Shown here piece after piece: positions 17,103-35,683 of a stretch of 41,832 nucleotides of DNA. The DNA is from Opitutaceae bacterium (lineage in GTDB: Bacteria > Verrucomicrobiota > Verrucomicrobiia > Opitutales > Opitutaceae). Numbering within the stretch: position 1 is the stretch's first letter; each line of letters starts with the position of its first letter. A program made the position numbers and the translations under genes. Location of the stretch: NCBI GenBank assembly GCA_046704465.1, contig JBJKRV010000097.1, positions 1-41,832 on the forward strand, in the 5' to 3' direction. Under the pieces are notes generated by a model. That model was not told where the DNA came from, ran no database searches, and saw only the letters and a program-made list of their open reading frames with translations.

Positions 17103-17626
17103 GCCGTACCCCCCAGGGCGAGACTGATTTCGAGCCCTTCCGCTTGCGCCATCCGAGCGATCGCGTCCTGGTTTTCCCAGTAGGCCCGGAAGAACATCGC
17201 GGCGCCCTTGAACCCTACCCGTCCGATCTTCCGACGGACCAGAAATTCCAGTTGGTCGAGCTTCTTTCCCGCCGCTCCGAACTTCAGGATGAGCCAGGGG
17301 AGAAGGGGCCGCTCGGAAAGGGCTTTGTCTTTTCCGCCCGGCGGCCATTTCCCGGGCCGTCTGCCGCGCTCGATGATGTCGCCGTAGGGATTCGCAGTCA
17401 TGACCATGCCCCGGATGAGGGGCGTCCCCAGGCCTTCGAGCTCCATCTGAATCGACCCCAGGAGGCCGCCCTGTGCCCCGTGCGCGCCGATCGGGGTGCG
17501 CTGCTTCACCTCGCGCAGCAGGTAGGCCGTCAGCATCGTCATGAAGCGGTCCAGGTGCTCTTGGACCACGTCCGCCGGCCTCTCGAAGAGCGGGCCGGAA
17601 ACGGTCATTTTAAGGGAAAAATCCAT
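17099..17626 (-). CDS. HK97 gp10-like head-tail joining protein
   Basis: The internal ATG at 17626 (MDFSLKMTVSGP...) overlaps the upstream stop (TGATG). The sequence ...RTPIGAHGAQGGLLGSIQ... is typical of the gp10 family. Confidence 0.65.
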   Translation of the reverse strand: MDFSLKMTVSGPLFERPADVVQEHLDRFMTMLTAYLLREVKQRTPIGAHGAQGGLLGSIQMELEGLGTPLIRGMVMTANPYGDIIERGRRPGKWPPGGKDKALSERPLLPWLILKFGAAGKKLDQLEFLVRRKIGRVGFKGAAMFFRAYWENQDAIARMAQAEGLEISLALGGTA

Positions 17627-18297
17627 CAATTGCCCCAGGTCCGGATCCAGGTGTTTTTGCCGTGGGTCATCCGCAGGTCGTCCTGCGGGTAGGATGCGCT
17701 CGCCGATGCGCCGGGAGGCCCTCCCTGCTCGTCCGCGCCGATATGGTCGAGGAAGAGCTGCCGCAGCCGCTTCGCGCGGTTTCCGGCCTCGGTGCTCTTC
17801 GTCCGGAAGTTCACGACGTCGGCCGAAATCGTCGGATCCGATGCGTCGAGGTAGCTGTTTGCCAGCGTTTCGAGACACATGGCCGCTGCGAGAGAGGCCA
17901 CGGCGTCGATGTCCGCGGCCGGGATGTCCGCCTCGGCCCGGGACACCGTGTAGTTGATGCGGACACTCTCTCCCGTGGCCGGCTGGACGTAGACGAGCCT
18001 GAGCTGGGTTGCGGCCGGAGACCGGTAAATCTCCCACTCGTTATCGTCCACCACGGCCGTCGGGACTTCGCCCACTGGGTATTCGACACCCAAGATCGCA
18101 GAGAGATCGGCCTCCCAGTCGAGGGGGAGATCCAGCTCGTGCCCGTCCGCTCCGGCGAGATCCGCCGTAACGATCTTCGGCCGGAACTCGCTGTAGCGTC
18201 CGATCGCCGCCGCCACCGCCGGCGTGTAGTCGACGTCATCGGTCAACCGCCCCGTCGAATCCTTCACCTTCGCCTTCACCGTATCGATCAGAGCCAT
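17626..18297 (-). CDS. Putative head-tail connector / structural protein
   Basis: The call rests on position. I recognise no family. Confidence 0.45.
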   Translation of the reverse strand: MALIDTVKAKVKDSTGRLTDDVDYTPAVAAAIGRYSEFRPKIVTADLAGADGHELDLPLDWEADLSAILGVEYPVGEVPTAVVDDNEWEIYRSPAATQLRLVYVQPATGESVRINYTVSRAEADIPAADIDAVASLAAAMCLETLANSYLDASDPTISADVVNFRTKSTEAGNRAKRLRQLFLDHIGADEQGGPPGASASASYPQDDLRMTHGKNTWIRTWGN

Positions 18298-18304: not shown

Positions 18305-18340
18305 GTCCGCATCCGTCCGTGGGGGTCCATGTCAGTCCGT
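18305..18340 (+). repeat. Phased GTCCR array C (four units, 10-bp spacing)
   Basis: GTCCGC at 18305, GTCCGT at 18315, GTCCAT at 18325 and GTCCGT at 18335. The array ends 7 nt from the start codon at 18297. Confidence 0.8.
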
Positions 18341-18444
18341 AATTTCTTCTTTCTCCGCGGCCACCGCCGTTTCTGCGGGAACCCCGGAGAAAGCCCGACG
18401 AGCCGATTTCAGCCCGCCGGGCTCGGGCCTGGGAGGGACCCGCG

Positions 18445-18906
18445 CTACTGCCGTTTGAGCACAAGAAATACGGTACAATCCGTCAGGCTCGGCGTGGTCC
18501 CGCCGAGCGTCAGCACAACGGACATCGTACTTTCGTCCGTAAGCGCGGACGTCTTGATCGATGCCTGGTATGTCGTCGCCTGGGCCGCCAGGCTCAACGC
18601 CGCGTTCAGAACCGACGTCGAGCCCATTTTAAGATCGACGGTGTACGTCTCGTCCCCGCTGCTCGTATCGAGCACTTCACCCCGGGCCGTCATACTGACA
18701 AGTGTGCAGGGATACGGTAGCTGAAAGACGATCGGCGTCGCCGTCGCGGTGATCGTGCGGCTGAAGGTCAGCGGCAACACGATATAGCCGGGCGATGCCG
18801 GCGACGGATTCGTCGTCGAAACCGTGGCCCGCGCCGTCATGGGCATCATGGTCAAAAATACCGCCGCCAAGGCGATCAAGGATACTTTGAAAAGGCCTTT
18901 CTTCAT
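18445..18906 (-). CDS. Secreted beta-rich protein with a cleavable signal peptide
   Basis: MKKGLFKVSLIALAAVFLTMMPMTARA-TV... An AGGAG Shine-Dalgarno sequence lies upstream. The gene is flanked by GTCCR arrays B and C. Confidence 0.7.
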   Translation of the reverse strand: MKKGLFKVSLIALAAVFLTMMPMTARATVSTTNPSPASPGYIVLPLTFSRTITATATPIVFQLPYPCTLVSMTARGEVLDTSSGDETYTVDLKMGSTSVLNAALSLAAQATTYQASIKTSALTDESTMSVVLTLGGTTPSLTDCTVFLVLKRQ

Positions 18907-18922
18907 GTCTTGCTCCTAATCC

Positions 18923-18947
18923 GGCCGGCCGCCTCGCGCGGCCGGCC
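18923..18947. terminator. GC hairpin after the capsid gene (10-bp perfect stem, GGCCGGCCGC / GCGGCCGGCC)
   Basis: A T-run (TAATTTTT) follows only on the + strand. On the - strand the hairpin sits between the capsid stop and the next Shine-Dalgarno sequence. It may act as an attenuator or RNA stabiliser. Confidence 0.45.
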
Positions 18948-18955
18948 TAATTTTT

Positions 18956-18992
18956 GTCCGCGTCAGTTCGTGTCAGTCCGCGAAAGTCCGTA
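18956..18992 (+). repeat. Phased GTCCR array B (four units, 10-bp spacing)
   Basis: GTCCGCG at 18956, GTTCGTG at 18966, GTCCGCG at 18976 and GTCCGTA at 18986. The 26-nt core 18966-18991 matches 27449-27474 at 24 of 26 positions. Confidence 0.8.
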
Positions 18993-19002
18993 TTCTTCCC
19001 CG

Positions 19003-21453
19003 CTATCCAGCGACCACTTCCATGCGCGCGTTCCGGTAGTCGTCGATCTCGCACTCATACTCGTGTCGGACCTTGTACTGGATCTTGTCCGCGACGAACA
19101 TCTGGCCGACGGCCGGGTTGTCCGCGACGAACATTTCCGGCTCCTGCCGCCCGTGGAGGAAGGCAAGCTCCAGGATCGGGCAAAGGGCCGGATCCCCGAG
19201 CATGATCCAGTCGGTCACGTCCGTCATGAAGGGGTTCACGAAGATCCCTTCATTGTTCGCGCCGAAGTACTGGAACATGGCGTTCCCGAAGTTCGGAGAG
19301 CCCGGGAGTCCCCGGCTCTGGTTCAGTTCCGTGGCCGTGCCCCAGAGATCGGTCGGGATGGAGAGCGTCTTCGGGGTCAGGCCGATGCGCTCGCCGCTCC
19401 CGGGCTCCGCCTGCTTCTCGAAGGCGATCTTGGCCGCCACCGCCGGATCGTGGGCATAGGCCGTGGACCCGAGATTCCCGTGATCGACGTGGAACATCGC
19501 CTTCCCATCGCCCTTGTAGTTGTCGTTATTGATGAGCTTCGCCCAGCAGCGCTTCGCGAGGGTTCTCCTCGCGGCCCGGGGGATCCGGCTTCGGATCCGG
19601 TCCACGGCCCGCATGTCGTCGTTCAGGATCATCTGACGGGTGATGGTGATGATCCCGCCCTTCTGGTTGATGGCGTAGGAGATCTCCTCGTCGGAGAGGA
19701 CGCCGAGATCCGGATAGTCCACCGTCTCCGGGGTGATGTCCGGGAGGTCACCGAAATAGGCGATCTTCACCGATTCCATGGTCCGGAAGTCCTGCGCGTT
19801 CCGGATGTTCGGACCGACCAGGAGGCTCACGCCGTAGTCGCTCATTTCCCGGTAGTCCGCGATCATCTGCCGATAGAGGGAATTCCCGAGGACGTAGGAA
19901 AAGGTCGTGCTCCCGAACGCCGCCTGCATGCGCTGGATCTGGCCCGGGTCGAGATAGCCGCGGACCTCCGAATCCCCGGTCATCTCGATGTAGGCTGCCT
20001 TCAGGCTCCGGAACTGCGGGACGTCCTTGAACGTATCCCCCACCGGAACGCCGAAGAGCTTGTCGACGGCCGCCTGGAACTTCTCGTTCCCCTCGCGACC
20101 GACCCGCGCCTGTCCGGCGCCCGCTACCGCGCCGGATCCGTTGAGGCTGTCCACGAGTTCCTTGGTCTCCTGGATCGCCGCCTGGAGTTCTTCCGGCTTG
20201 TATTCGATGTCCGCGAACCGGCGACGAAGGGATGCCTGGAACTTCTCCGGGAGCTTCGAGGCCGTAAGCGTCTGGTCCAGGATCATCCGGGAAAGGGACG
20301 CCTGGAGCGTTTTCACGGCGGGATCCGGGCCGATCGTGAGAACTTTTTTCAGCTCGGCCGCGACCGCCGCGACAAGCTTGCCGTCAACGGCGCCGTCGCC
20401 CGGGCCGGGCGCTTCCGCCATCGCCGCGACGAGCTTTTCAAGGGCCTGGTCTTCGGTGATCGTTCCGGCGGTCATCGCCTCCTCGATCTCTTTCACCAGG
20501 TCGGGCCGCGTTTTCTTCATGGCGACCAGCAGTTTTACCAGCATTTCGCGCTCTCTTTCTCCGCCGGCCGAAGCGGCGGCCATTTGAATGAATTTTCCGG
20601 CGTTTGTCGGGTCGTACACAACGTCGACCTCTACGGATTTGATCGTCACGGGCTGCCGGGCCTGTCTCCCCGCGACCATCACGGTCTTCGACGTCCCCAG
20701 GGCGTCGAGCGACAGGCCGTAGAGATCCGGCTTTCCCCGGTCGAAGGAATCGATCAGGCCATCCCGGAGCCATTTCGCGGACGTTAGGATGTTGAAATTC
20801 GCCTCGATGGCGGTTCCCGTGTCCGTGACGTTCGAGAGCCAGCCCACGATTTCCTTCACCGATTTGCCGAAGGTCTTCCCGCTCTGGTGCTGGCTCTCGT
20901 TCAAAGCAAAGACACGCGCGCCCTCCATGAGCGGGATCGCCGCGACCAGGGGCTCCCGGGTCCAATTGATCCGGCCATCCTTTCCGAGCCCGTATTCGTT
21001 TACCTGAACACGCCAGGTGTATCCGTAGGAATCGTCCGCGGGGTCTCCGACCGCGCCCAGAAACCGCGTGCTCCCCGGGCCGTGGCCGTCGAAAAGGGTT
21101 TCGCCGGATTCGGCCGCCTTCATCCCGTCGATCGCGGCGATGAGTTTCCCGGCCTCCTCGAAAATAGCCGTATCCTTCTGCTGAGCGGCCCGCTGGCGGA
21201 TCGCGATCAGGGCGCTCCGATAGACCTTCCCGCCCTTTCCGAAGGGATACGCCCAGGCGTTCTTTACCGTCTCCGGCACTCCCGGCGATACCCCGAGGTG
21301 CATGGCGCCGAAGGCCTTCCAATCCTTCGGATCCCCGAGCATCCGGTTCTCGTCATCTGCCGAGATCGACCAGGCGCTCGCCTTGTCGACCGCCCCGGAT
21401 TCGATGAGGCCCTTGGCATGGGCCGCGCCGCTCTTGTTCAGTCCGTGGGTCAT
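19003..21453 (-). CDS. Prohead protease - scaffold - major capsid protein fusion (816 aa)
   Basis: Residues ~170-300 are protease-like (ARVFALNESQHQSGK...LYGLSLDA). Residues ~330-480 are helical and Ala/Glu-rich. The C-terminal ~330 aa look like a major capsid protein. Confidence 0.7.
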   Translation of the reverse strand: MTHGLNKSGAAHAKGLIESGAVDKASAWSISADDENRMLGDPKDWKAFGAMHLGVSPGVPETVKNAWAYPFGKGGKVYRSALIAIRQRAAQQKDTAIFEEAGKLIAAIDGMKAAESGETLFDGHGPGSTRFLGAVGDPADDSYGYTWRVQVNEYGLGKDGRINWTREPLVAAIPLMEGARVFALNESQHQSGKTFGKSVKEIVGWLSNVTDTGTAIEANFNILTSAKWLRDGLIDSFDRGKPDLYGLSLDALGTSKTVMVAGRQARQPVTIKSVEVDVVYDPTNAGKFIQMAAASAGGEREREMLVKLLVAMKKTRPDLVKEIEEAMTAGTITEDQALEKLVAAMAEAPGPGDGAVDGKLVAAVAAELKKVLTIGPDPAVKTLQASLSRMILDQTLTASKLPEKFQASLRRRFADIEYKPEELQAAIQETKELVDSLNGSGAVAGAGQARVGREGNEKFQAAVDKLFGVPVGDTFKDVPQFRSLKAAYIEMTGDSEVRGYLDPGQIQRMQAAFGSTTFSYVLGNSLYRQMIADYREMSDYGVSLLVGPNIRNAQDFRTMESVKIAYFGDLPDITPETVDYPDLGVLSDEEISYAINQKGGIITITRQMILNDDMRAVDRIRSRIPRAARRTLAKRCWAKLINNDNYKGDGKAMFHVDHGNLGSTAYAHDPAVAAKIAFEKQAEPGSGERIGLTPKTLSIPTDLWGTATELNQSRGLPGSPNFGNAMFQYFGANNEGIFVNPFMTDVTDWIMLGDPALCPILELAFLHGRQEPEMFVADNPAVGQMFVADKIQYKVRHEYECEIDDYRNARMEVVAG

Positions 21454-21459
21454 GTCGTG

Positions 21460-21708
21460 CTAACCCTTCCCTTTCCCGCCGGCGACATCCGCCGGCGCCT
21501 TTCTCTTCGGGACCCGGTGCTTGCGTCCGTCGGAGCCGACGATCACCACATGCTCGCCCGTATCCGCCCAGGACAGCACGTGTTCCGGGGTCATCTCCTC
21601 TTCCCTGGGGATGATGACGGCCTTCGCTCCGGGTTTCACGGTTTTTTGGGCGCTGCGGTGTGTCAGCCCCTCCAGCCATTTCTTGTCGATCGGTTTGATC
21701 GCTGCCAT
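21460..21708 (-). CDS. Hypothetical small head-module protein
   Basis: An 82-aa ORF directly upstream of the capsid gene. Confidence 0.5.
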   Translation of the reverse strand: MAAIKPIDKKWLEGLTHRSAQKTVKPGAKAVIIPREEEMTPEHVLSWADTGEHVVIVGSDGRKHRVPKRKAPADVAGGKGKG

Positions 21709-21886
21709 GTCGGTCTCCTTTGCTCGGTTTCGCTTTGCGTGGCCGATCCGGGAAAACCCGTCCCGGCAAGTGCGTGAATTTTAATCCCAGGGCATTCAGG
21801 GCCGTTTATAAACGGGGTAAGCCCTCCCAACCCGGGGGATTGCCTGCCCCGTCCCGGGATCGTCGATCCTGGGGCCTCTCAGCGCG

Positions 21887-22696
21887 TCAGCCCCAATCCG
21901 GGTGATAGGGCACGAGATCGCACCCGCAATGGATCACTTCCTGGATCGGGGCCTTGGGGTCGCGCGGGAAGCGCAGGGCGTAGCCGTTCGACATGAAAGG
22001 CTCGCCCGCCGGCTTTCTCACCCCGTCGAGCGCAAGGTGACTGATTCGCGCCCGCATCGGGTGCCCGGCATGCCACCACTCCCCCATCATTCCCGGCACC
22101 GTGGCCGCGGCCTGCCGGATCCCCTTATAGGTCGCGTAGCTGTAGGCGCGCCCCATTTCGAGCTCCGTGACCGTCTGCGCCCGGGCCTCGATGCTCTTGA
22201 AGATCCCGGGGCTTTCCAGCGTGCCCGCGATGTTCCGCGCGACCTGAAAAGGCGTCTGCTGGCCGAGGAGTCCCAGGGAAAGCTCTCCCTGGATCTTTGA
22301 CATCATGTCCTCGGAGAGCCCGTCGATGCGGAATGCCGTGAACTCCTTGAGGCTCTCCAGCACCGTCCGGGGCACGTACCCCGTGGCGAACCCGATCTGC
22401 CCCCCCGCCTGGGCCGCGGCAAAGGGCAGATCCCCCCCGGCCGTCCACATCGTATCGAGTTGTCCGGAGAGAGCGTTCTTCGCCTGGGCCGCGAACCGGT
22501 CGATGTCCGCCTGGATCTTCGGGAGCATCGCCCGGATCCGCGCGCCGGAGACGGTGTCCTCCGGGGTCGCCTGGATCTCCGCCATCACCTGGCGCTTCAC
22601 CTCGGCAAGGAGGCCTGCGACCACTGCCTGGCCGTCAAGAATTCCTTGATCCCGCTCCTGGATGAGCGCCCGAATTTTCGGCGTAACGATGGCCAT
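21887..22696 (-). CDS. Head morphogenesis protein (Mu F / SPP1 gp7 family)
   Basis: The C-terminal region reads WWHAGHPMRARISHLALDG...HCGCDLVPY. The gene follows the portal gene. Confidence 0.8.
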   Translation of the reverse strand: MAIVTPKIRALIQERDQGILDGQAVVAGLLAEVKRQVMAEIQATPEDTVSGARIRAMLPKIQADIDRFAAQAKNALSGQLDTMWTAGGDLPFAAAQAGGQIGFATGYVPRTVLESLKEFTAFRIDGLSEDMMSKIQGELSLGLLGQQTPFQVARNIAGTLESPGIFKSIEARAQTVTELEMGRAYSYATYKGIRQAAATVPGMMGEWWHAGHPMRARISHLALDGVRKPAGEPFMSNGYALRFPRDPKAPIQEVIHCGCDLVPYHPDWG

Positions 22697-22699
22697 CGG

Positions 22700-24124
22700 T
22701 TATCCCGCCGTCCCGGGCTGCGCGTCCGGCTGCGGCTTCGCATCCGGAGACGTTCCCGTCTTCTTATAGTCCTGGTAGTTCTGGGTTAGATCCATCGAGT
22801 CGGGGTGGATCTCGAAGCCGATCAGATCGGAGATGTGCGCGAACATTTTTACTGCGGTCGGCTCATCGATGAGTCCCTGGGTCTCGGCCGCGACGATGGC
22901 GGCGGTCAGGTCCTTCACCGCGCCGCTGACGAGGGAGACGTCCCGCTCCATGGTCTCCGGCTTCTGGACCGCGAAATCAAACGCCTCGTCTTCCGGAACA
23001 TGGAGATAGCCCGCATCGATCGCGCCTTGAATCGCCGTCGTGAACATCGTCTCCAGGATGAACTTCACCAGGTTCTGCCGGGCGTCGATCAGGGCCTTCA
23101 TGGGCTCGTTTCCTTCCTTCGCCGCGGCACGGTTCACGTCCATGGCCCCTCCGTACCAGTGGGGGGGGATGCATTTCGAGCTGATGATGTGGAGCCGGAA
23201 GACCCCGGCCGCCTCCTTCATCTCGACCGATTTCAGATTCGGCGCGACGGCCTGCCAGGTGACTTTTTCGTTATGCACCCGCACGGCCCCGTCCGGGTTT
23301 CGAGCGAACTGCCGGGCCATCGCGTCGCATTGCTTATCGTCCGCGTTCTGAACGGTCACGTCGTAGATGAAATTGTTCTGCTTTTTCGCCTTCTCGGCCG
23401 TCGCGAACACGAATTCCTCGTACTCGTTCAGCCAATCCGCGATGGCAAAGAGGTCGCTCGTTCCGTAGGGATCGTTCGAAACCCGGTTGATAGCGATCAG
23501 GAAGCACTCCCCGTCCGTGTATTTGTCCCGCAGATCTTTTGCGGACTGGGAGATCACGGTCTCGGTCTCGCCGATCAGGATGGTTTTTAGCTTCCGTTCC
23601 TTTCCGGTCTCGATGTTCTGGACCGCGACCCCGATCAGGACCTCGGCGTTTTCCGGGTCGGCCACGACCTGCACGACCTGGCCCGGATCGACCATGCCGA
23701 GCCGGATCCGCCCCGTCTGCTCGCTTCTGAACACCGGCCAGCACTGCAGCCCGAAGATGGAGAGCTCCCGGACTTTTTGCTCCAACTTGATATCCATCCG
23801 GTTGATGGCGTCGTACCAAAAATCGTCCATGATCTTTTTGACGTCCGGGTTCTTCGCCGTGTAGGTGAAGCCCTTCCCGGCGGTGAGGGCCGCGAGGATC
23901 TCGACGATCCAGTTGGCGAGGGGGTTCGTTTTCCAGAGCCAGTAGCAGATCTCGACCTGTCGCTGCCAGGTCGCGACCGGGAGCTCCCGCACGCTGTTCC
24001 CGGTCAGCCGCCGCCACTGGATATCGTCCAGGGCCTGGGAGGCCGCGGCCGGCAGCCGATCCTCGACCGCCCGCTCGATCGTCCCCGAAAACATCCGCTC
24101 GGCCACCTTCTTCAGAACTCCCAT
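22700..24124 (-). CDS. Portal protein
   Basis: Size and position after TerL. ATG 24124 overlaps the TerL stop (TGATG). GTG 24127 is an alternative start. Confidence 0.8.
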   Translation of the reverse strand: MGVLKKVAERMFSGTIERAVEDRLPAAASQALDDIQWRRLTGNSVRELPVATWQRQVEICYWLWKTNPLANWIVEILAALTAGKGFTYTAKNPDVKKIMDDFWYDAINRMDIKLEQKVRELSIFGLQCWPVFRSEQTGRIRLGMVDPGQVVQVVADPENAEVLIGVAVQNIETGKERKLKTILIGETETVISQSAKDLRDKYTDGECFLIAINRVSNDPYGTSDLFAIADWLNEYEEFVFATAEKAKKQNNFIYDVTVQNADDKQCDAMARQFARNPDGAVRVHNEKVTWQAVAPNLKSVEMKEAAGVFRLHIISSKCIPPHWYGGAMDVNRAAAKEGNEPMKALIDARQNLVKFILETMFTTAIQGAIDAGYLHVPEDEAFDFAVQKPETMERDVSLVSGAVKDLTAAIVAAETQGLIDEPTAVKMFAHISDLIGFEIHPDSMDLTQNYQDYKKTGTSPDAKPQPDAQPGTAG

Positions 24125-25812
24125 CACGCGCTCCTCCGCTGAAACAGCCGTCCCAGGCCGCCCCGGATTCCCATCAACGGCTCCCGTCTCGCGTCCGCCT
24201 CGTCATCGGCGCCGGCGCACGCCGCCGGAACCATGCCCTGCTCGCAAAGCCCCAAAAGCATCTCCAGGCAGTCCGGCCCGTCGTCATGGCCCCCGCGGTT
24301 CCCGGGCCGGTAGTAGATCAACTGCCGCTTCAGTTCCCGGTGCTCCGCCCGGAATCGGATCCATCCGTTCTTGATCCATGGCTGCAGCCGGATGATCCGC
24401 AGGTCCTTGTCCGTGGTCGGCTTGTGCTCGTCGATGTTGATGGTGAGCCCCTGGGCGTGCGCGAGCTTTTCGAACTCGCGCGAGAAGAATTCCTGAAACT
24501 GCACCGTCTCCATCCGGAACCGGTCGAAATGATCCCGCTCATGATAGGTGAGGATGTCCGCCATGATCCGGTCCGGCTGCCGCTTCTCGATGTCGGCGAT
24601 GTCGAGGTAGAGGATCCCCTCCTTCATCCGTCCGCCCATGATGGCCGAGGGGTCGTTTCGCTTGTTTTTCTTCCCCAGGGAGGGGTCGCAGGCCCCGGCA
24701 TGGGGTATCCCCTCGAAATCCACGTCGCCGTCTTCCCAGTCGCGGAACCATTCTTCGAGAAAGATCTGGTCCTCTGGATTCAGGGGCTCGTTCTGTTTTT
24801 CGGAGTCGAAATAGGCCGGCCCGTCCGCCACCCGCATCTTCATCAGGTAGTAGTAAGGCTCCATCTCCGGCCAGAGGACCAGGGCACCGGAGAGCATCGT
24901 TTCCTGGTGCTGTTCGAAGAAGGCATCGGCAAGCTCTTCGGCTTCCTCTTTCCCGAGGTTCGTGTCGGAAAAGATCCCCTCCCACTGGCCCCATAGGGTC
25001 TTTGCCGGGGACCACTTGATGACCGATTGGAACTTCCGGCCCTTCCATCCGGGCCGTTCCAGGAGCCGCTGCAAGAGGCTTTCGTGGTGAAGGATCGTCC
25101 CGATCACGATGTAGACCGTATCCGGCTGGCCGATCTTCATCAGCGCCTTGAAGAACCAGTTCTCGAGTTTCCTCCGCTGGTCCGGACTCTCAACCGATTC
25201 GTCGTTTTCGAGGTCGTCCCCGATCACGAGGTCCGGCCGGAAGCTCCCGTGCCGGAGTCCCCGGAGCTTCTGCCCGCTCCCCGCGCCCTGGATCTTCACA
25301 CCGTTCCGGGTGATGATCTTATCCGAGCGCCAGACCGGCCCCTCGCCGTAGAGTTCCGGGAAGTCCTGCTTGATGCGCTCGTTCGTTTCGAGCTCCAGCT
25401 TGATGAAGGAGATGAACTCCTCGGCTTGCCCTTTGGTCTCTGAAACGATCAGGGCGTAGCGCCGGGTACGGAACATCGCGGCCGAAAGCGGCAGGAGAAA
25501 GGTCGTCCATGTCGACTTCGCGTTCCCGCGCGGGGCCGCGTCGGCTTCCCGGTCGCCCTCTCCGGAATCGTTCGCGCGGGCGATCATCTCCGGGTAGCGC
25601 TTCGCGAAATACTTGTGAAGGGCGGACGATGGCTTGTTGAAATAGTGCGGAAAATAGGTGCGGCCGCAGAAGTCGAGATCCTTTTCCGCCCGGGCCTTTC
25701 GTTCCCGCTGCGCCTTCTTGTTTTCGGGGAACGGCCGGGCCGCCGCCTGGATCATCTGGCGGATCGCCTCGACTTCCTTCGAAAACTGTCGCTCTTTTGC
25801 GTTTCCCGCCAT
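24124..25812 (-). CDS. Terminase large subunit
   Basis: A Walker-A-like PRGNAKST, then LVIGDDLEND, and a C-terminal nuclease-type region. Confidence 0.9.
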   Translation of the reverse strand: MAGNAKERQFSKEVEAIRQMIQAAARPFPENKKAQRERKARAEKDLDFCGRTYFPHYFNKPSSALHKYFAKRYPEMIARANDSGEGDREADAAPRGNAKSTWTTFLLPLSAAMFRTRRYALIVSETKGQAEEFISFIKLELETNERIKQDFPELYGEGPVWRSDKIITRNGVKIQGAGSGQKLRGLRHGSFRPDLVIGDDLENDESVESPDQRRKLENWFFKALMKIGQPDTVYIVIGTILHHESLLQRLLERPGWKGRKFQSVIKWSPAKTLWGQWEGIFSDTNLGKEEAEELADAFFEQHQETMLSGALVLWPEMEPYYYLMKMRVADGPAYFDSEKQNEPLNPEDQIFLEEWFRDWEDGDVDFEGIPHAGACDPSLGKKNKRNDPSAIMGGRMKEGILYLDIADIEKRQPDRIMADILTYHERDHFDRFRMETVQFQEFFSREFEKLAHAQGLTINIDEHKPTTDKDLRIIRLQPWIKNGWIRFRAEHRELKRQLIYYRPGNRGGHDDGPDCLEMLLGLCEQGMVPAACAGADDEADARREPLMGIRGGLGRLFQRRSA

Positions 25813-26310
25813 CTATTTCCCCTGGTACTTCACGCGACCCCAGGTCACGATGTCGTCGAAATTGTCCTCGATCACGGCGACGATTCCGGCGTCGTTCCGG
25901 CTGCCGTACTCGATCAGGTCCTTCAGAAAATCGAGAAAAAGGGCCGCGCGGTACTCGGCGCTCTTCATGGCGCCCTCCCGCTCGGACTGCTCGAAGCGCT
26001 GGACGAGCGCGCCGAGCTTCGAAATACCGTCGAGCGCGGCCGGCGTGATCTTCCCGGCCGGAGCCTCCTCGGCGAAACCGAGCTCGCGCTCCAGGAGATT
26101 CTTCAGCCGGAGGCACATCGTCTGCTTCTGCGCCCTGGCCTTGTCCCAATCGTCGAGCTCGTCCCCGGGCCGCTTCGTGTCCGCCTTCCACTGTGAAAGC
26201 GTCTGCCGGGATACCCCGAGCGCCGCCTCGATGTCCGTCAAGGATTTCCCCTCGGCGAACATATGGAACGCGACATCGTAGAGTCGCTCCTTGGCGCCTT
26301 TCTCAGCCAT
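25813..26310 (-). CDS. Small-terminase-like DNA-binding protein (Mu gp27 / DUF1804-like)
   Basis: The internal ATG at 26310 (MAEKGAKERLYDVAFHMFAEGKSLTDIEAALGVSRQTLSQWK) overlaps the upstream stop. Confidence 0.65.
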   Translation of the reverse strand: MAEKGAKERLYDVAFHMFAEGKSLTDIEAALGVSRQTLSQWKADTKRPGDELDDWDKARAQKQTMCLRLKNLLERELGFAEEAPAGKITPAALDGISKLGALVQRFEQSEREGAMKSAEYRAALFLDFLKDLIEYGSRNDAGIVAVIEDNFDDIVTWGRVKYQGK

Positions 26311-26555
26311 CAGGCCAGCCCCCGCTTCAACCGCTCGACCTCCAGGATCACGGCCTGAAGTTCGCCCCATGCCTCGGTCAACTGGCTCCACTGCTCGGCC
26401 AGCATCGGCACCGGCAGCTCGGCCGCCGGCGTGAGCGCGGTATTCAGCCCGGTCCGGATGGCTTCGGCGTCGCCTTCGATCCGGAGTTCCAGCCGTCTTT
26501 TTTTATCTTCGGCCTCGGATAGTTTTCCGCGCATGGCGGCCCTTTCCATGCTCAT
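26310..26555 (-). CDS. Hypothetical coiled-coil protein
   Basis: ATG 26555 overlaps the upstream stop (ATGA). Confidence 0.45.
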   Translation of the reverse strand: MSMERAAMRGKLSEAEDKKRRLELRIEGDAEAIRTGLNTALTPAAELPVPMLAEQWSQLTEAWGELQAVILEVERLKRGLA

Positions 26556-26929
26556 GCCGCACTCCCTCCCCGTCGGAGCATCGGGCAAAATTGGTTTTGG
26601 TCGATCCGCTGCACCAACCCTTCAAGGGTCCGTGTCGATAGCGTGATGATCGATGTCAGATCGCCTGCGAGCCGCTCGTATCCTTTCACGAGCAGAACGT
26701 TGTCCTCGTAAAATCGCGTGACTTTCGCGACGTCTTCGCGATATTGACTCAAGACCTTCTGGAGCTCTTTCCTGTGATCTTCCGCCGCTTCCTGGAACTG
26801 TTGCCGATGCTCCCGCATAATCCGGTCGATCTTCCGCTGATCGATGTACCAAAGCACCAACACCGCACCCGGCATCCCGAGAATTGAAATCACCAGAGCA
26901 ATCAACGACATCGACACCCCTTCAATCAT
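26552..26929 (-). CDS. N-terminally membrane-anchored coiled-coil protein (i-spanin-like or lysis regulator)
   Basis: One N-terminal transmembrane segment (LIALVISILGMPGAVLVLWYI). A GGGGAG Shine-Dalgarno sequence lies upstream. GTG 26932 is an alternative start. Confidence 0.45.
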   Translation of the reverse strand: MIEGVSMSLIALVISILGMPGAVLVLWYIDQRKIDRIMREHRQQFQEAAEDHRKELQKVLSQYREDVAKVTRFYEDNVLLVKGYERLAGDLTSIITLSTRTLEGLVQRIDQNQFCPMLRRGGSAA

Positions 26930-26990
26930 CACCGGCTCCCCTCAAGAAAGGTTTGGCGGCCGGATGGCCCGCCTATCGCCACCGCTGCAC

Positions 26991-27080
26991 GTCCACGCAT
27001 GTCCACCATGTCCACACCGTACATTTCGTCCATGCCTTTTCGTGTTGTTGTGGAGAAAACCATCCGGCCGCCTCGTCCAC
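26991..27080 (+). repeat. GTCCAY array D
   Basis: GTCCAC at 26991, 27001 and 27010, GTCCAT at 27028 and GTCCAC at 27075. All lie in the 193-bp intergenic region 26933-27125. Confidence 0.7.
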
Positions 27081-27125
27081 TGGGGCGCGATCGCCCCTAT
27101 CCACTACGCACCGCCTGCGTGTTGG

Positions 27126-27434
27126 TCAGTGAAGAAAATACTGCGCGATTGTGAGCCCAACCGAAATCCCGGACGCAAAAACAATGAGGACAATGCCCCA
27201 ATATTCTTTGATGAAGGATTCACTGGTCACGAATATTTTGTGGGTTTTGACCAGCCCCTCGTTCGCCAGCTTTTCGACATCCTTTTTCAATGCCTTCAAG
27301 CCGTCAGCATATGCAGCCATTTCTCTGTCGATGAAGGCCTTGACCGCCTCTTCCGTCTTCATTACATCCCCTTCGACTGTCTCAGCGGTCTTTTCCGCAA
27401 AATCCTTGTATGGCTGAGGCGCATTTGTCGTCAT
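27126..27434 (-). CDS. C-terminally membrane-anchored hypothetical protein (lysis cassette)
   Basis: The C-terminal transmembrane segment is YWGIVLIVFASGISVGLTIAQYF. Confidence 0.45.
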   Translation of the reverse strand: MTTNAPQPYKDFAEKTAETVEGDVMKTEEAVKAFIDREMAAYADGLKALKKDVEKLANEGLVKTHKIFVTSESFIKEYWGIVLIVFASGISVGLTIAQYFLH

Positions 27435-27448
27435 CTTTCGATCTCCCC

Positions 27449-27485
27449 GTTCGTGTTAGTCCGTGAAAGTCCGTGACCGTCCGTG
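27449..27485 (+). repeat. Phased GTCCR array A (four units, 10-bp spacing)
   Basis: GTTCGTG at 27449, and GTCCGTG at 27459, 27469 and 27479. The array lies between the holin stop and the next start codon. Confidence 0.8.
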
Positions 27486-27496
27486 TTCGTTTTTAC

Positions 27497-28096
27497 CTAC
27501 TTCTTCCCCGAAATCACCGAGGCCATCGCAGAAATCATTCCGGCGGGCTTCACGGTCGATTGACCGATCGCCATGTTGTACCGGGCGGTCTTCTCCGTGG
27601 TCCGTTTCCCGAAATATTGATAGACGATGGTCACGGGAGCCGCGAACACGGATCCAATGATCGGCCATGCCGACGACAGGTCGTTCAGCGCTGTCGGCTT
27701 CAAAAATATGGCGGCGATCACGGCCAGCGTGAGCGCGACGGTCTCGAAAATGAGCAGCCGGGACATGTTCTCCGCGATCTTCGGCCGCGTGCTCGACCCG
27801 GCCGCGTCCGCCTGGGCAAGGCTCGCCTGGACAGCCGCGAAGGTGGTCAGTTCCGTCGATTGCAGCCCGATTTTTGCCTTCGCGATATCGGCCTCGATGG
27901 CCTTCAACTTCACCATCGTCGCCGGGTCCGCTGCCGCAAGCGCCGTATTCACGACATCGGGCGATGCCGTGGATTCAAGACCCAGGCTTTGCGCGAGCGA
28001 GGATGCGATCCCGGCCCCGGCAGGGCCGCCGAGCGCCGTCCCGATCACTTTCAACCCGATGTCCCCGGCCGTCTTCGCAACATCTGTCCAGTCCAT
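27497..28096 (-). CDS. Holin (GTA-type 3TM holin family)
   Basis: The internal ATG at 28096 (MDWTDVAKTAGDIGLKVIGTALGGPAGAGIASSL...) overlaps the endolysin stop (TGATG). Confidence 0.7.
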   Translation of the reverse strand: MDWTDVAKTAGDIGLKVIGTALGGPAGAGIASSLAQSLGLESTASPDVVNTALAAADPATMVKLKAIEADIAKAKIGLQSTELTTFAAVQASLAQADAAGSSTRPKIAENMSRLLIFETVALTLAVIAAIFLKPTALNDLSSAWPIIGSVFAAPVTIVYQYFGKRTTEKTARYNMAIGQSTVKPAGMISAMASVISGKK

Positions 28097-28593
28097 CACA
28101 TCCCTCCCCAATGCCGCGCCACCGTGAAAACCCGAGTCAACCATCCTTCGCCGTACTTGCTGAAGTTGCGCGAGCAGGTGTATCGGATCGCCCGGATCGC
28201 CATGAACCGGTCGGCGTACCATGCAGCGGCCCGCTTCATGGCTGCCGTGGTCTTCGGCCCGATGACCCCGTCCATCGTGAGGTCCAGGGCATCCTGCATC
28301 ATGTGGATGGCATCGTCAGGGGATTGATTCACCGCCGAGTCAAAAACGAACAGGGCCAGCGGCCACGACATGTCGTCGCAGTGGCATTTGTCCCAGTATT
28401 CTTTCCGGTAGATGGCGACGGCCTGGTCGCGGGTGAGGTTTTCGACGTCTACGTCGGGGTGGAATTTCTGAGCGATGCCGAACTTGGTGGTTCCGCCCGG
28501 GTCGTCCGGGTCACGGGTGACTTTGTCCAAGCCTTCAAGGTCGACAACCAGGTCGACGGCATACTCAAACGGGTTGGCCGGTGCATGCGTCAT
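28096..28593 (-). CDS. Endolysin (glycoside hydrolase family 108 with a C-terminal peptidoglycan-binding domain)
   Basis: Contains EGLDKVTRDPDDPGGTTKFGI...YRKEYWD...DGVIGPKT. ATG 28593 has GGGAGG 7 nt upstream. Confidence 0.8.
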   Translation of the reverse strand: MTHAPANPFEYAVDLVVDLEGLDKVTRDPDDPGGTTKFGIAQKFHPDVDVENLTRDQAVAIYRKEYWDKCHCDDMSWPLALFVFDSAVNQSPDDAIHMMQDALDLTMDGVIGPKTTAAMKRAAAWYADRFMAIRAIRYTCSRNFSKYGEGWLTRVFTVARHWGGM

Positions 28594-28664: not shown

Positions 28665-28707
28665 AAAAAAAAGCCGGAGCGCTGTCGCTCCGGCTTTGCT
28701 TCTTTTT
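28665..28707. terminator. Bidirectional rho-independent terminator
   Basis: A 10-bp stem (AGCCGGAGCG / CGCTCCGGCT) with a 4-nt loop. It is flanked by A8 on one side and by the T-rich TTGCTTCTTTTT on the other. It separates the lipoprotein genes from the late operon. Confidence 0.8.
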
Positions 28708-28783
28708 GCACACATTGTGAGGTGTTTGCCCCTTATTGCTTCCTAATCTGGCACCCCTTACCTGCTCCGTCCATGAAACTCAA

Positions 28784-29203
28784 TCACCCCGGCACCCGAT
28801 ATCGCAACATTTCTGCCCGGATATCTCCATCATCCCCAAACCCCATTTGCTGGGCATAATAATACGTTAACGCCGTGGAGGTGTCGGAGGATGCCTTGAA
28901 CTCGATCCGGATCACTGGAGAGTCGGCAGATAGCTCTTCGCATACTTCCAGGAAGCCCGATTTCGATTCCGGGTAAATTCGGGAGATGATATGGGTTCCT
29001 CCGCCGCCTAATAAAAGATCGCCATTAGATGCGACGTTATCTTGTAGCCAATAACGCATTCGGTCGTAGAAATTCTTGTAATTTTCGGTGACCTGGTACT
29101 TATCCATGGTCCCATTGGATATCAGCCAGGCACGCGCCTGTTTCGTTGTAGTGCACCCGAGTAGCAATATGAGGAAAAAGCCCAGATATGTTGCTTTCTT
29201 CAT
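28784..29203 (-). CDS. Lipoprotein (moron)
   Basis: MKKATYLGFFLILLLGC carries a lipobox. By eye the GC content is visibly lower than in the flanks. Confidence 0.7.
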   Translation of the reverse strand: MKKATYLGFFLILLLGCTTTKQARAWLISNGTMDKYQVTENYKNFYDRMRYWLQDNVASNGDLLLGGGGTHIISRIYPESKSGFLEVCEELSADSPVIRIEFKASSDTSTALTYYYAQQMGFGDDGDIRAEMLRYRVPG

Positions 29204-29231
29204 GCTGTGTCTCTCCTTTGTTTTCGCGACA

Positions 29232-29696
29232 TCACTTTTCCAAGCTATTCTTTAGGCCATATAGCTTCAACTGGAGATCGTTATACACATTTTTCCAATC
29301 AAGAAGTGACGCCTTGGAAACGGATCCGTTAGGCATCTTCGCTCTGGCATCTGCCGAGGCGATTATTTTCACACCATCCCCCATTTTGATAAAAATATAG
29401 GTAATTTCCTCATCATTCGTGCTGTATCCGTTTCCAATGGAGAAAATGACCGCCATATTCTGATCGCTATCAAGCGGATGTGTCATTCTCAACATGGAAG
29501 GGCTTTCTTCTTCGAATTCATATCCATTTTGAATGTCTTCTGACATGATTTTGGATTTTACAGCGCTGATACCAGCCCCTTTGATAATGACTTCCGGCTT
29601 ACCCGATGAAGTATATGTAAACTTTTTAGCTGGCGTAGCACATCCGTAAAACGCCATAATTGTTATACAAAGACAAACTGTTATATACTTTTTCAT
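29232..29696 (-). CDS. Probable lipoprotein (moron)
   Basis: MKKYITVCLCITIMAFYGC carries a lipobox-like motif. GC content is low. Confidence 0.65.
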   Translation of the reverse strand: MKKYITVCLCITIMAFYGCATPAKKFTYTSSGKPEVIIKGAGISAVKSKIMSEDIQNGYEFEEESPSMLRMTHPLDSDQNMAVIFSIGNGYSTNDEEITYIFIKMGDGVKIIASADARAKMPNGSVSKASLLDWKNVYNDLQLKLYGLKNSLEK

Positions 29697-29793
29697 CCCT
29701 TACCCCTTTTTTGATTTCCTATGTTCTATTCAAACCACTCCTGGGCTTCGACCATCCGCAAGAACACAACATTCCCGACTTCCGCCACCCGTC

Positions 29794-30276
29794 TCAGCCC
29801 GCCTTTTGCGTGGTTTTACCCCTTGTTTGCTCCGCGATTGGAGCGTCGTGACTTTTCCCGCCGGCCGATTTCAGCGCGTCAACTGCCCCTTTGACGTAAT
29901 ATTCCATCCGCTTCATGGCGTCTGGATCCAGCTTTTCCAATTCCATGAGCCCGCGATTGATCGCCAGGGCTGTCTGTTTGTCTATAAAATCCCGGATCAC
30001 AGTGATGTGTTCACGATCTATGGCCGTTTCCCCATTCCCCATGATATCCGGATCTCGCTGGTGATGATGACCGCATTCGCGGTTTTTTCCAGTCAGCAAC
30101 CAAGCCGGATCAACCCCATATTCGGTCAATTTTCTCAGAAAAGATCCAGGGACATCTCGCTCCCCACGCTCATAATATTGGTATGTACTTAATGCACACC
30201 CCATTTTTTGAGCCATATCCTTCTGTGATAATTGCCATTTTTTTCTTGTCTCACGAATCCGGTTTGACAACTCCAT
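29794..30276 (-). CDS. XRE-family repressor (Mu c-like by position)
   Basis: The HTH is LSQKDMAQKMGCALSTYQYYERGER. The gene is divergent from the ner-like gene. The first ATG is at 30276, and the track start at 30306 is a GTG. Confidence 0.7.
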   Translation of the reverse strand: MELSNRIRETRKKWQLSQKDMAQKMGCALSTYQYYERGERDVPGSFLRKLTEYGVDPAWLLTGKNRECGHHHQRDPDIMGNGETAIDREHITVIRDFIDKQTALAINRGLMELEKLDPDAMKRMEYYVKGAVDALKSAGGKSHDAPIAEQTRGKTTQKAG

Positions 30277-30643: not shown

Positions 30644-30657
30644 TTTAGCGGAACCGG

Positions 30658-31786: not shown

Positions 31787-31789
31787 TCC

Positions 31790-32716: not shown

Positions 32717-32719
32717 GCC

Positions 32720-34402: not shown

Positions 34403-34410
34403 GAGGACAC

Positions 34411-35649: not shown

Positions 35650-35683
35650 TCGCCACCAAGTCCATAAAAGGAGCAAAACAACC

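Follow-up and report, generated by a model that had tools for sequence, protein, structure and literature searches.

CsrA/RsmA site clusters, such as those of the glgC, hag and pgaA leaders and of CsrB, CsrC, RsmY and RsmZ, contain multiple single-stranded GGA motifs in an (A/U)CANGGANG context, about 10-20 nt apart, with one site at or near the Shine-Dalgarno sequence (SD) and many sites per abundant RNA. CsrA needs a single-stranded GGA and can bridge two sites at a distance of 10-63 nt, 18 nt being optimal; the sites of CsrB have a mean spacing of 12.25 nt (PMC3856055). The CsrA-FliW system is functional in Geobacter (PMC13407953), and CsrA represses a lysis gene of a mobile element, cel of ColE7 (PMC2896534). 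At the DNA level, three to six short direct repeats at helical-turn spacing are known from P2 Cox, 186 Apl, lambda Xis filaments, CtsR (7+3), MraZ (5+5) and lambda CII. P2 Cox, for example, binds at least six 9-bp boxes that are 10-11 bp apart, with one protomer per turn (PMC3936717). Further, the stoperators of mycobacteriophages L5 and Bxb1 are single 13-bp sites of a monomeric immunity repressor and flip with the direction of transcription (PMC9283540).

Here, we describe repeat arrays in a Mu-like prophage of about 39.6 kb, which lies in a stretch of 41,832 nt (the window) together with 2 kb of available host flank that is Desulfobacterales-like. The arrays share with CsrA/RsmA clusters the multiple GGA motifs, their spacing and the many sites per abundant RNA; single-strandedness is predicted for A-C, and a site at or near the SD is seen for C and nearly so for A. 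As candidate sites they differ in being strict 10-nt tandems outside hairpin loops, in their placement between late genes of a phage, where the known clusters occupy 5' leaders or dedicated sRNAs, and in having C or U nearly always after GGA. We read them tentatively, with a probability of about 0.4, as intercistronic CsrA-type RNA platforms that would bind CsrA and gate translation or titrate the protein, judging from the sequence.

The resemblance to the DNA-level systems is partial. As with Cox, Apl and Xis, small winged-helix proteins are encoded, including one of the excisionase family; however, the sites of those systems overlap promoters or att sites and their binder is present, neither of which was found here, and the spacers here are strand-asymmetric with a mostly fixed sense relative to transcription. 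Like the stoperators, the arrays are oriented asymmetric motifs in short intergenic gaps of a temperate phage, but they are tandem 10-bp arrays, their motif is common to unrelated phages, and one of them (array E) is unflipped, keeping its DNA strand rather than its transcriptional sense.

Sequence and placement of the arrays

Four phased GTCCR arrays in the gaps of the late operon had been reported in the first-pass annotation of this DNA, and its coordinates hold on checking the sequence. Arrays A, B and C each have four GTYCR units exactly 10 bp apart, which read GTTCG/GTCCG/GTCCG/GTCCG at 27449/59/69/79 (with an additional GTTCG at 27485), GTCCG/GTTCG/GTCCG/GTCCG at 18956/66/76/86 and GTCCG/GTCCG/GTCCA/GTCCG at 18305/15/25/35, respectively. 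A and B share a 26-nt core identical at 24/26 positions, and all departures from GTCCGTG in A-C are transitions. Array D is looser, with GTCCA at 26991, 27001, 27010, 27028 and 27075 (spacings 10, 9 and 18). The count of four is nevertheless one short, as array E in the early operon had been overlooked; its units at 36142/51/60/69 (spacings 9, 9 and 9) fill a 53-nt gap between the early genes 35684..36136 and 36190..36642. Likewise, GTCCR is the 5-base core of the repeat, but the conserved unit is the heptamer GTYCRYR with a 3-bp spacer. Every match is on the + strand in a gap between genes. The one-helical-turn phasing is real, and GTYCR x3 at 10-bp spacing gives 6 matches, where 100 dinucleotide-preserving shuffles average 0.00; 4-of-4 windows did not occur in 100 Markov simulations.

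On the late mRNA, array A reads CGAAC-a-CGGAC-ggucaCGGAC-uuucaCGGAC-uaacaCGAAC. The units of A-C follow (A/U/G)CRYGGAC, with GGA in 9/12 and GAA in 3, and those of D are, in + strand order, CGUGGAC, GGUGGAC, UGUGGAC, CAUGGAC and AGUGGAC. Array A starts 8 nt past the holin-like stop codon, and 4 nt separate its end from GGGGAG, the SD of the 102-aa protein gene. Array B lies 11 nt past the stop codon of the capsid gene; a GC-rich hairpin comes next, ahead of the SD of the 153-aa protein gene. Between array C and the ATG of 17626..18297 there are 7 nt, and the GGA of its last unit, 8 nt before the AUG, is the sole SD-like element there. Array D is 58 nt away from the SD or start of its downstream gene. 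Array E is on the same DNA strand as A-D, its operon is transcribed oppositely, and the early mRNA carries GUCC, not GGAC.

DnaA-box clusters (TTATCCACA or TTGTCCACA) offer another comparison. Two units of D/E (ATGTCCACA and TCGTCCACA) match the GC-rich box TTGTCCACA at 8/9, but most units reach 6-7/9, the essential ACA is not preserved in the GTCCGTG units of A-C, and arrayed low-affinity boxes have a period of 11 bp as against 9-10 bp here. In addition, a transposable phage needs no origin. No Rfam family matched the arrays or the inverted pairs described below, BLAST with the consensus array gave no meaningful match, and the heptamer strings had only irrelevant matches in the literature searched. 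Exact-protein look-ups of the 153-aa and 102-aa proteins gave no match, a close phage of the prophage was not found in INPHARED, and no public sequencing run containing the window was found.

Table 1. Arrays and neighbouring features in the window
Feature	Position	Strand	Remarks
223-aa head/tail-joining-region protein gene	17626..18297	-	start codon 7 nt from array C
Array C	18305..18341	-	+ strand: GTCCGCATCC GTCCGTGGGG GTCCATGTCA GTCCGTA
Purine tract before C	18343-18356		equivalent to the tract before A
153-aa protein gene	18445..18906	-	predicted signal peptide; between arrays B and C
Intrinsic-terminator-like hairpin	18923..18957	+	10 GC pairs then TAATTTTTGT; antisense to late genes, abuts array B
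Array B	18956..18992	-	+ strand: GTCCGCGTCA GTTCGTGTCA GTCCGCGAAA GTCCGTA
Purine tract before B	18993-19001		equivalent to the tract before A
Protease-major capsid fusion protein gene	19003..21453	-	upstream of array B
i-spanin-like protein gene (phrog_25899)	26552..26932	-	N-terminal TM segment and coiled coil; downstream of array D
Long-range stem around most of array D	26955..27072	-	z = -3.8
Array D	26991..27079	-	GTCCAC/GTCCAT units; between 102-aa membrane-protein gene and i-spanin-like gene
102-aa protein gene	27126..27434	-	C-terminal transmembrane segment; arrays A and D on either side
Array A	27449..27489	-	+ strand: GTTCGTGTTA GTCCGTGAAA GTCCGTGACC GTCCGTG TTCG
Holin-like multi-TM protein gene (phrog_1544)	27497..28222	-	upstream of array A; true start probably near 28096
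Purine tract GGGGAAGAAG	27500..27509	-	ahead of array A (mRNA sense); overlaps last codons and stop of holin-like gene
Repressor operon	29794..30306		co-directional with late operon, just upstream; the phage repressor is an XRE-type HTH protein
Ner-like protein gene	30377..30643
CII-like early protein gene	30658..31143		161 aa; matches regulator family phrog_2345 and, weakly, CII-like phrog_101
wHTH protein gene	31496..31786
Array E	36142..36175	+	GTCCGCTTC GTCCACAAC GTCCACCCT GTCCATA; period 9
Excisionase-family protein gene	41400..41696

Promoters, terminators and RNA structure

The phasing had been taken to suggest a phage late regulator of the winged-helix (wHTH) or response-regulator type, for example 31496..31786. 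We found no support for this proposal, because arrays are absent from the region homologous to the conserved late promoter of relatives, which follows the terminator at 28670-28697; no co-occurring protein was found either. Late activator sites were dropped on the same ground. No sigma-70-like promoter was found beside any array in a consensus scan, and a promoter would not fit between arrays A and C and the start codons, which are only 14 and 7 nt away, respectively. Transposase end sites were also dropped, as the phage ends carry ATTGCGAAAAGTG/CGAAA repeats, i.e. CGAAA-type sites, rather than GTCCG. Reasoning on mismatches of motif or context led us to discount sigma-54 and ECF promoters, primase sites, Chi, KOPS, gyrase sites and integrase arm sites.

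As RNA, arrays A-C are predicted to be unpaired and are not displayed in loops. Most of array D lies within the long-range stem, where GGCGGCCGGATGG (26955-26967) pairs with CCATCCGGCCGCC (27060-27072) over a predicted 16 bp or so. The hairpin next to array B has no U tract in the mRNA sense, and relatives keep a sense-oriented or bidirectional hairpin at this position.

On the + strand, this hairpin resembles an intrinsic terminator and falls exactly between arrays C and B; past array A there is a bidirectional terminator. Both would suit activator-dependent antisense promoters, at which the CII-like protein would act on the repeats and + strand transcripts antisense to holin, capsid and neighbouring genes would damp late expression. 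The assignment of the 161-aa early protein to its regulator family points the same way, lambda CII binds TTGC-N6-TTGC, a 10-bp direct repeat, and TAnnnT hexamers follow B, C and D on the + strand (TATTCT, TAATTT and TACATT). However, array A has no -10-like hexamer, no promoter passed the consensus scan, and the arrays of other phages are followed by TTCTTCC or GTT and not by -10 elements. Moreover, 30 of the 31 loci with a homologue of the CII-like protein have no array in the covered region; the only arrays among them are in the contig previously known to have them, and the CII-like protein was rejected as the binder. We consider antisense promoters very unlikely. In a variant of this explanation, the arrays would be RNA polymerase pause or Rho-loading tracts. 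A 10-nt repeat with YG satisfies the G-10/Y-1/G+1 pause rule, but the rule does not account for why A and C are conserved in the heptamer.

Occurrence in other phages

The first-pass annotation had proposed a scan of relatives. Arrays are absent from the head-module relatives (10/10) and from nearly all early-module relatives, but they recur in unrelated phages. In environmental phage contigs, arrays of GTCCGYG were found at 45 loci and those of ATCCGYG at 103, in comparison with 20-23 for control heptamers. They keep the 10-nt period with differing spacers, lie mostly just past stop codons, and occur in contigs with a GC range of 0.38-0.73. Arrays begin 4-25 nt past the stop codon and end 5-45 nt before the next SD, distances too short to hold a promoter. 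The consensus unit in the mRNA sense is RRR-CACGGAC, with GAA-CACGGAU as the commoner variant. The GGA strand is the mRNA strand at a ratio of about 3:1 (19:6 for GTCCGYG arrays and 42:13 for ATCCGYG arrays), while a looser GTCCR x4 set has no orientation bias. Arrays with non-identical spacers number 25 and 76, as compared to 4 and 6 for two control heptamers; since the core is conserved while the spacers vary, selection on the heptamer core is indicated. No protein family common to the array loci was found by open reading frame clustering and phmmer across all of them, the genomes being partly covered. Because the heptamer recurs in unrelated phages without a shared protein, a conserved host factor is suggested.

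These data bear on whether the arrays act as DNA. An oligomerising protein could bind with one subunit per heptamer on one helix face and serve as a roadblock or silencer in the gaps, insulating the lysis and head genes from read-through of the upstream co-directional repressor operon (29794..30306). Such a role would fit the heptamer with its 3-bp spacer and exact 10-bp phasing (10, 10 and 10 in A-C, within the 10-11 bp of phased operators with at least three direct repeats), the multi-box precedent of P2 Cox and the small wHTH/HTH proteins encoded at 30377..30643, 30658..31143, 31496..31786 and 41400..41696. Further, all five arrays are on one DNA strand irrespective of transcription, and array E in particular favours a DNA-level role. 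In this phage, but not in its array-less relatives, the repressor gene is followed by the late operon on one and the same strand, and in gut Firmicutes phages GTCCG arrays occur just upstream of promoter-like sequences, by a late-regulator-like gene and terS. Nevertheless, no promoter-like or recombination site was found at the arrays of the window, and no candidate binder tracks them in the partly covered genomes: homologues of the HTH_17 protein (in L005, with an HTH_17-annotated gene at the same position in L212) and of the CII-like protein (30/31) occur in array-less phages. The lack of a protein common to array-bearing phages, the strand-asymmetric spacers and the 9-bp period of E, which would turn successive sites off one helix face, also argue against it, and a heptamer found across such a GC range would require a very widely conserved binder. 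We consider a DNA-level operator unlikely. If the arrays were DNA sites, they would represent a new, very widely shared heptamer operator.

Sporadic occurrence, with absence from 10 head-module and 30 early-module relatives, is also what a selfish or neutral short dispersed repeat (REP, MITE or Rickettsia palindromic element-like) would show if it had spread, or arisen by slippage, and survived only in gaps, with no regulatory role. The exact A/B 26-mer occurs in L155 and in nine metagenome loci, L203-L211, whose flanks have no detected protein homologues (L203 and L155 are one contig of 10,247 nt). Inverted array pairs, which fold at -69 to -82 kcal/mol, were found in L206, L208, L210, L211 and L351. 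One such pair is in frame within a gene, in a loop of a four-helix-bundle protein, and recalls Rickettsia palindromic elements; the end of L211 is a perfect tandem expansion of 8-9 copies, and the copies in the window are all co-oriented. In forming inverted pairs past stop codons, arrays outside the window resemble REP/REPIN, Correia and Rickettsia palindromic elements. In contrast, the window has no inverted pairs: its arrays are single arms of 10-nt phased modules, with no RAYT or other transposase, no terminal inverted repeats and no target duplication. The conserved heptamer with variable spacers, the consistent sense bias and the position past stop codons also argue against a selfish origin. 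By our estimate, spacer preferences may predict the 26-mer to within a few-fold of its actual recurrence; a conserved A/B 37-mer that looked like a mobile element was given no weight, as the same estimate applies to its number of matches. A selfish repeat is quite unlikely.

A candidate CsrA-type RNA element

The first-pass annotation had named, as an alternative to its late regulator, a CsrA-type protein acting on GGA motifs beside ribosome-binding sites. After the phage comparison this alternative is the best supported part of its interpretation, and the late-regulator part is not sustained. The link to CsrA is one of motif resemblance and a single co-occurrence. The array unit fits the CsrA/RsmA consensus ACANGGANG; the concatenated unit ACACGGA(C/U)G agrees both with RUACARGGAUGU, the consensus from SELEX, and with the general ANGGA rule. 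On the mRNA, the context of the GGA core is ANGGA or (A/U)CANGGANG. The cross-phage consensus is A-CAC-GGA-(C/U)-G. Array D fits the context partly, with CA-N-GGA only in its CAUGGAC unit, and E has no fit. Adjacent units 10 nt apart and alternate units (i, i+2) 20 nt apart are within the distances that CsrA bridges. Neither the window nor the first 150 loci yielded a CsrA gene; however, one phage contig (L351/L322) encodes a 59-aa CsrA (PF02599) along with five CACGGAU arrays in 2.2 kb, where 0.14 would be expected.

Each of arrays A-C, and less clearly D, would offer three to five (A/U)CA-N-GGA-Y-R units in unpaired RNA, 10 nt apart, as a compact cluster of CsrA/RsmA-type sites. Host CsrA dimers, with two RNA-binding faces, could bridge units 10 or 20 nt apart and cover the RNA from the stop codon to the ribosome-binding site that follows. 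If the final unit touches the SD or itself serves as the SD (C for 17626..18297 and A for 27126..27434), translation of the downstream cistron would be held back. The approximately 15 GGA sites on the abundant late transcript may titrate CsrA in the manner of the sponge RNAs CsrB and RsmZ, and accumulation of late mRNA would then lift repression, providing a dosage or timing device for the lysis cassette and for the region that follows the capsid gene. With some reserve, we view A-C, and D less clearly, as putative RNA elements that act in cis from the intercistronic spacers of the polycistronic late mRNA.

Several observations count against the CsrA reading. The mRNA of array E carries GUCC, not GGA, about a quarter of the arrays elsewhere are in the opposite sense, some inverted pairs would bury GGA in long stems, and three units in A and B have GAA. 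The near-invariant Y past GGA and the strict 10-nt spacing exceed what the CsrA consensus requires, and known CsrA sites are usually in hairpin loops. The orientation of array E, the inverted pairs and the in-gene copies remain unexplained by CsrA.

Whichever reading applies, it is a concrete and testable regularity that a single heptamer array recurs across about 150 phage contigs which share few proteins. It is doubtful, though conceivable, that the arrays represent an undescribed, widespread class of phage cis-elements, with tandem CRCGGAY units at a 10-nt period between cistrons that read or titrate host CsrA and with some phages bringing their own CsrA. If the arrays are CsrA platforms, many environmental phages, several of them Mu-like, would tie late translation and lysis timing to the host regulator of carbon, motility and biofilm; alternatively, the phages would disarm CsrA with sponge-like mRNA segments. 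To our knowledge, phage-host control via CsrA platforms has not been reported. CRCGGAY x3 at 10 nt would then be a sequence signature for such phages and, because their hosts should carry csrA, a clue to host range. A further regularity accompanies the arrays: a purine tract (GGGGAAGAA or GGAGAAAGAAGAAA in the mRNA sense) is ahead of each of A-C, the GGAAGA boundary of these tracts also occurs in the arrays of other phages, and the spacers there are purine-rich on the GGA-containing strand.

We tentatively read arrays A–C, and perhaps D, as platforms, acting in the RNA, for a CsrA-type regulator specific for GGA, a reading to which we give a probability of about 0.4. Its basis is the arrays themselves, their sense and position, the fit of the motif, their recurrence without a common phage protein, and the occurrence of a CsrA gene together with arrays in one phage. 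The arrays may instead act at the level of DNA.

Phased arrays in the prophage

The window comprises the prophage plus 2 kb of host flank. The late operon lies on the repressor's strand and runs from endolysin, holin-like, 102-aa membrane protein, i-spanin-like and DUF1804 protein genes to TerL, portal, MuF, a protease-capsid fusion and tail genes. Re-reading of the sequence located arrays A–D as described in the first-pass annotation, and the A and B 26-mers do agree at 24 of 26 positions; a fifth array, E, had been overlooked, which occupies the gap separating two early genes. Placement in late-operon gaps stands for A (between the holin-like and 102-aa genes), D (between the 102-aa and i-spanin-like genes), B (preceded by the capsid gene) and C (7 nt before the start of 17626..18297), but not for E, which belongs to the early operon. 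The repeat had been given as GTCCR; this is present as the core of a longer conserved unit, the heptamer GTYCRYR, which is followed by a 3-bp spacer, and all departures from GTCCGTG in A–C are transitions.

All five arrays are carried by the + DNA strand. GTCCR itself is frequent in the window, with 177 copies on the + strand and 100 on the other, and runs of it spaced by 10 bp are confined to the arrays, apart from one two-unit pair at 41193/41203. The phased motif exceeds its frequency in shuffled sequence: GTYCR x3 at 10 bp has six matches in the window vs 0.00 in 100 dinucleotide shuffles, and no 4-of-4 window appeared in Markov simulations.

Arrays and main prophage features in the window
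Feature	Position	Strand	Description
Array A	27449-27485	+	GTTCGTGTTA GTCCGTGAAA GTCCGTGACC GTCCGTG, plus GTTCG at 27485
Array B	18956-18992	+	GTCCGCGTCA GTTCGTGTCA GTCCGCGAAA GTCCGTA
Array C	18305-18341	+	GTCCGCATCC GTCCGTGGGG GTCCATGTCA GTCCGTA
Array D	26991, 27001, 27010, 27028, 27075	+	GTCCAC/GTCCAT units
Array E	36142-36175	+	GTCCGCTTC GTCCACAAC GTCCACCCT GTCCATA, period 9
DegV/FakA-like host gene	2..1150		best named homologues from Desulfobacterales
Phage ends	~2170-2215, ~41765-41800		inverted 13-mer ATTGCGAAAAGTG in both, with other CGAAA-type, MuA-site-like transposase repeats
Strong bidirectional terminator	28670-28697		after repressor and two small genes, before late operon
XRE-type repressor	29794..30306	leftward	
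Ner-like	30377..30643	+	early operon
CII-like regulator	30658..31143	+	early operon
wHTH	31496..31786	+	early operon
MuA-like transposase	32720..34402	+	early operon
MuB-like ATPase, Gam, GemA		+	early operon
Excisionase-family HTH protein	41400..41696	+	early operon

The arrays as RNA

In late mRNA, A reads stop-guaaaaa-CGAACaCGGACggucaCGGACuuucaCGGACuaacaCGAAC-GGGGAG-N9-AUG and B reads stop-cGGGGAAGAAua-CGGACuuucgCGGACugacaCGAACugacgCGGAC-aaaaauua-(GC hairpin)-SD-AUG, while C follows two hairpins as GGAGAAAGAAGAAauua-CGGACugacaUGGACccccaCGGACggaugCGGAC-auagaaa-AUG; in this sense a purine tract lies ahead of each of the three. The RNA of A, B, C and E is predicted to be unpaired, and D to be enclosed by a long-range stem of ~16 bp. 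The commonest units in mRNA sense, GAACACGGAU and RRRCACGGAC, concatenate to ACACGGA(U/C)G, in agreement with RUACARGGAUGU, the consensus that SELEX gave for CsrA, and with the general ANGGA rule. A CsrA site cannot do without its GGA, which has to be single-stranded; one dimer bridges two sites separated by 10–63 nt, optimally by 18 nt, and the mean spacing of CsrB sites is 12.25 nt (PMC3856055). Array units lie 10 nt from their neighbours and 20 nt from alternate units.

CsrA dimers could occupy the spacer RNA, and bound CsrA would block the adjoining ribosome-binding site, a clear possibility in C and A. With its ~15 sites, an abundant late transcript would also titrate CsrA, and we propose that repression would thereby lift as late mRNA accumulates. 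CsrA repression of a lysis gene is known for ColE7 (PMC2896534), and CsrA-FliW functions in Geobacter (PMC13407953). In presumed working, the closest systems appear to be CsrA site clusters (CsrB/RsmZ, mRNA leaders), from which the arrays differ in being strictly tandem-phased, not loop-presented, and intercistronic in phage operons.

No CsrA gene was detected in the window or in the first sets of loci. A 59-aa CsrA homologue (PF02599) is encoded at 2131-2310 of L322, an ATCCGYG-bearing locus, corresponding to 10001-10180 of L351, a longer copy of the same phage that holds five CACGGAU arrays within 2.2 kb, where 0.14 would be expected; of the five, three follow the sense of the genes and two run opposite, and they include one inverted pair. 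The L351 contig is temperate phage- or plasmid-like (integrase, ParB, methylases), and its arrays sit 4-6 kb downstream of the CsrA gene. A CsrA-type regulator, listed in the annotation as an alternative, thus gains from motif fit, sense, position and this one phage, but E fits it badly, since it shares the DNA strand of A–D although its operon is transcribed the other way.

The strand of E and the exact one-turn phasing speak instead for protein binding to DNA sites in helical phase, as with Cox, Apl or CII; such an array might insulate the late genes against read-through from the repressor operon. We consider this unlikely, though a serious competitor, since no sigma-70-like promoter was found near any array on either strand and no co-occurring binder was found. 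Cox-type operator arrays (PMC3936717) have the geometry in common and stoperators (PMC9283540) the dispersal; the arrays lack defining features of both.

The hairpin next to B has a T tract on the + strand only, which points to a terminator for antisense transcription. This + strand terminator between C and B, together with the TAnnnT hexamers that follow B, C and D, would suit antisense promoters dependent on the CII-like protein, or tracts for pausing or Rho; array A, the consensus scan and the other phages are not in accord, and we regard this explanation as improbable. A further antisense terminator-like hairpin (8 GC pairs) occurs at 21477-21506 (+), just past the capsid gene 5' end, inside ORF 21460..21708.

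Relatives of the prophage

Capsid homologues, from Desulfobacterota-type MAGs, reach ~63% identity at most, and the TerL of L005, a head-module relative, is 82% identical to that of the window. Absence from related phages would, by the annotation's own criterion, speak against its reading; no array occurs in ten head-module relatives (L001-L005, L212-L215, L247), but the same heptamer arrays occur in unrelated phages. The terminator-like hairpin after the capsid gene is kept in all eight relatives read there (L004, L005 and L212-L215 among them). The strong terminator ahead of the late operon is followed by a late-promoter region whose homology between the window, L005 and L212 is recognisable and which contains no array; this, with the lack of promoters near the arrays, gives no support to the DNA-binding late regulator favoured in the annotation. 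Only one of 31 viral loci with a CII-like homologue has arrays (L235, the same contig as L148), and a further relative, L234, carries CACGGAT x3 in mRNA sense right after a stop codon of its early operon. Because they are absent from most relatives, the arrays do not belong to the core circuitry of the lineage.

L148 (8170-8236 and 9486-9572) is a Mu-like relative whose arrays lie between MuA and MuB; a hammerhead ribozyme of type II (59 bits) and an antisense RNA of the C4 family (57 bits) also score above the Rfam gathering thresholds there. A distinct phased array, (C/T)GGGAT x3 at 10-bp spacing, lies <300 bp from the contig (phage) end in five relatives that encode the CII-like protein (L236:30, L237:284, L241:158, L242:288, L246:70) and may represent end or operator sites.

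Recurrence in other phages

Among IMG/VR loci, GTCCGYG x3 at 10 bp was found in 45 (40 distinct arrays, 25 with non-identical spacers) and ATCCGYG x3 in 103 (91 and 76), compared with 23 (13 and 4) and 20 (17 and 6) for two controls of the same composition. In ATCCGYG arrays the number of units is usually exactly three, with GTT next. The loci are mutually unrelated, the largest common protein family covering 9 of 103, and a minority are Mu-like or have the window's capsid type (L148, L144, L136/L142, L157, L087, L280, L336). The arrays are mostly intergenic between co-directional genes, starting 4-25 nt past a stop codon and ending 5-45 nt ahead of the next SD, with the heptamer complement on the mRNA strand at ~19:6 (GTCCGYG) and 42:13 (ATCCGYG). 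Spacers are pyrimidine-rich on the GTCC/ATCC strand, hence purine-rich in mRNA, and several contigs hold many dispersed arrays. No description of such an element was found in Rfam or the searched literature.

The looser GTCCR x4 pattern gave >112 loci of mixed kinds without orientation bias, including some DnaA-box-like clusters and, in gut Firmicutes phages, arrays next to terS with promoter-like sequences downstream. In the latter type (L006, L016, L047, L055, L061-L063, L084, L085, L090, L091, L104; AT-rich phages, probably of gut Firmicutes), TGTCCG(C/T)AAA x4 stands between terS and a gene for a 172-aa late-regulator-like protein, with a promoter-like TTGxxx-N17-TAxAAT directly downstream, and looks like DNA-level use of a similar core.

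The exact A/B 26-mer recurs in L155 and in the nine metagenome loci L203-L211, of which L203 and L155 are one contig; no protein homologues were detected in the flanks. In L206, L208, L210 (twice) and L211 it belongs to an inverted pair as one of the two arms, (CACGGAC N3)x4, 10-25 nt, (GTCCGTG N3)x4; two of these (L206, one of L210) have predicted folds of -69 and -82 kcal/mol. The pairs at 787-877 of L208 and 2842-2928 of L210 lie in the reading frame of a four-helix-bundle-plus-suffix protein (TIGR02436 plus TIGR04258), within a loop, and encode ...EHGR(S/T)RT...SVSVRESPC.... L211 ends in a perfect tandem run of 8-9 copies. A selfish palindromic or slippage repeat is a further explanation, which we hold to be quite unlikely.

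Other features of the prophage

The module order is unusual (28670..41800): the late operon diverges from the early operon and follows the repressor gene, whose strand it shares; all relatives compared (e.g. L005, L212, L213) have the co-linear Mu order of GemA, HTH_17 protein, lysis, head and tail. In the left flank, the product of gene 2..1150 is 78% identical to one homologue and ~55% to proteins of Desulfobacterales MAGs. A near-consensus sigma-70 promoter (TTGACA-17-TATTAT, 2282-2310) precedes ORF 2360..2668 at the left phage end and overlaps the perfect palindrome TAATACGCATAATGCGTATTA, and the 2300-6900 region has many promoter-like sites on the + strand. A bAvd-like four-helix-bundle protein in this tail-fibre region (4460..5236, -) suggests that it may hold a diversity-generating retroelement; L212 and L214 have RVT_1 plus mtd beside the capsid module. 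In the early region, a PAPS-reductase-family gene (phrog_424, 37970..38809) may serve DNA modification or another auxiliary function.
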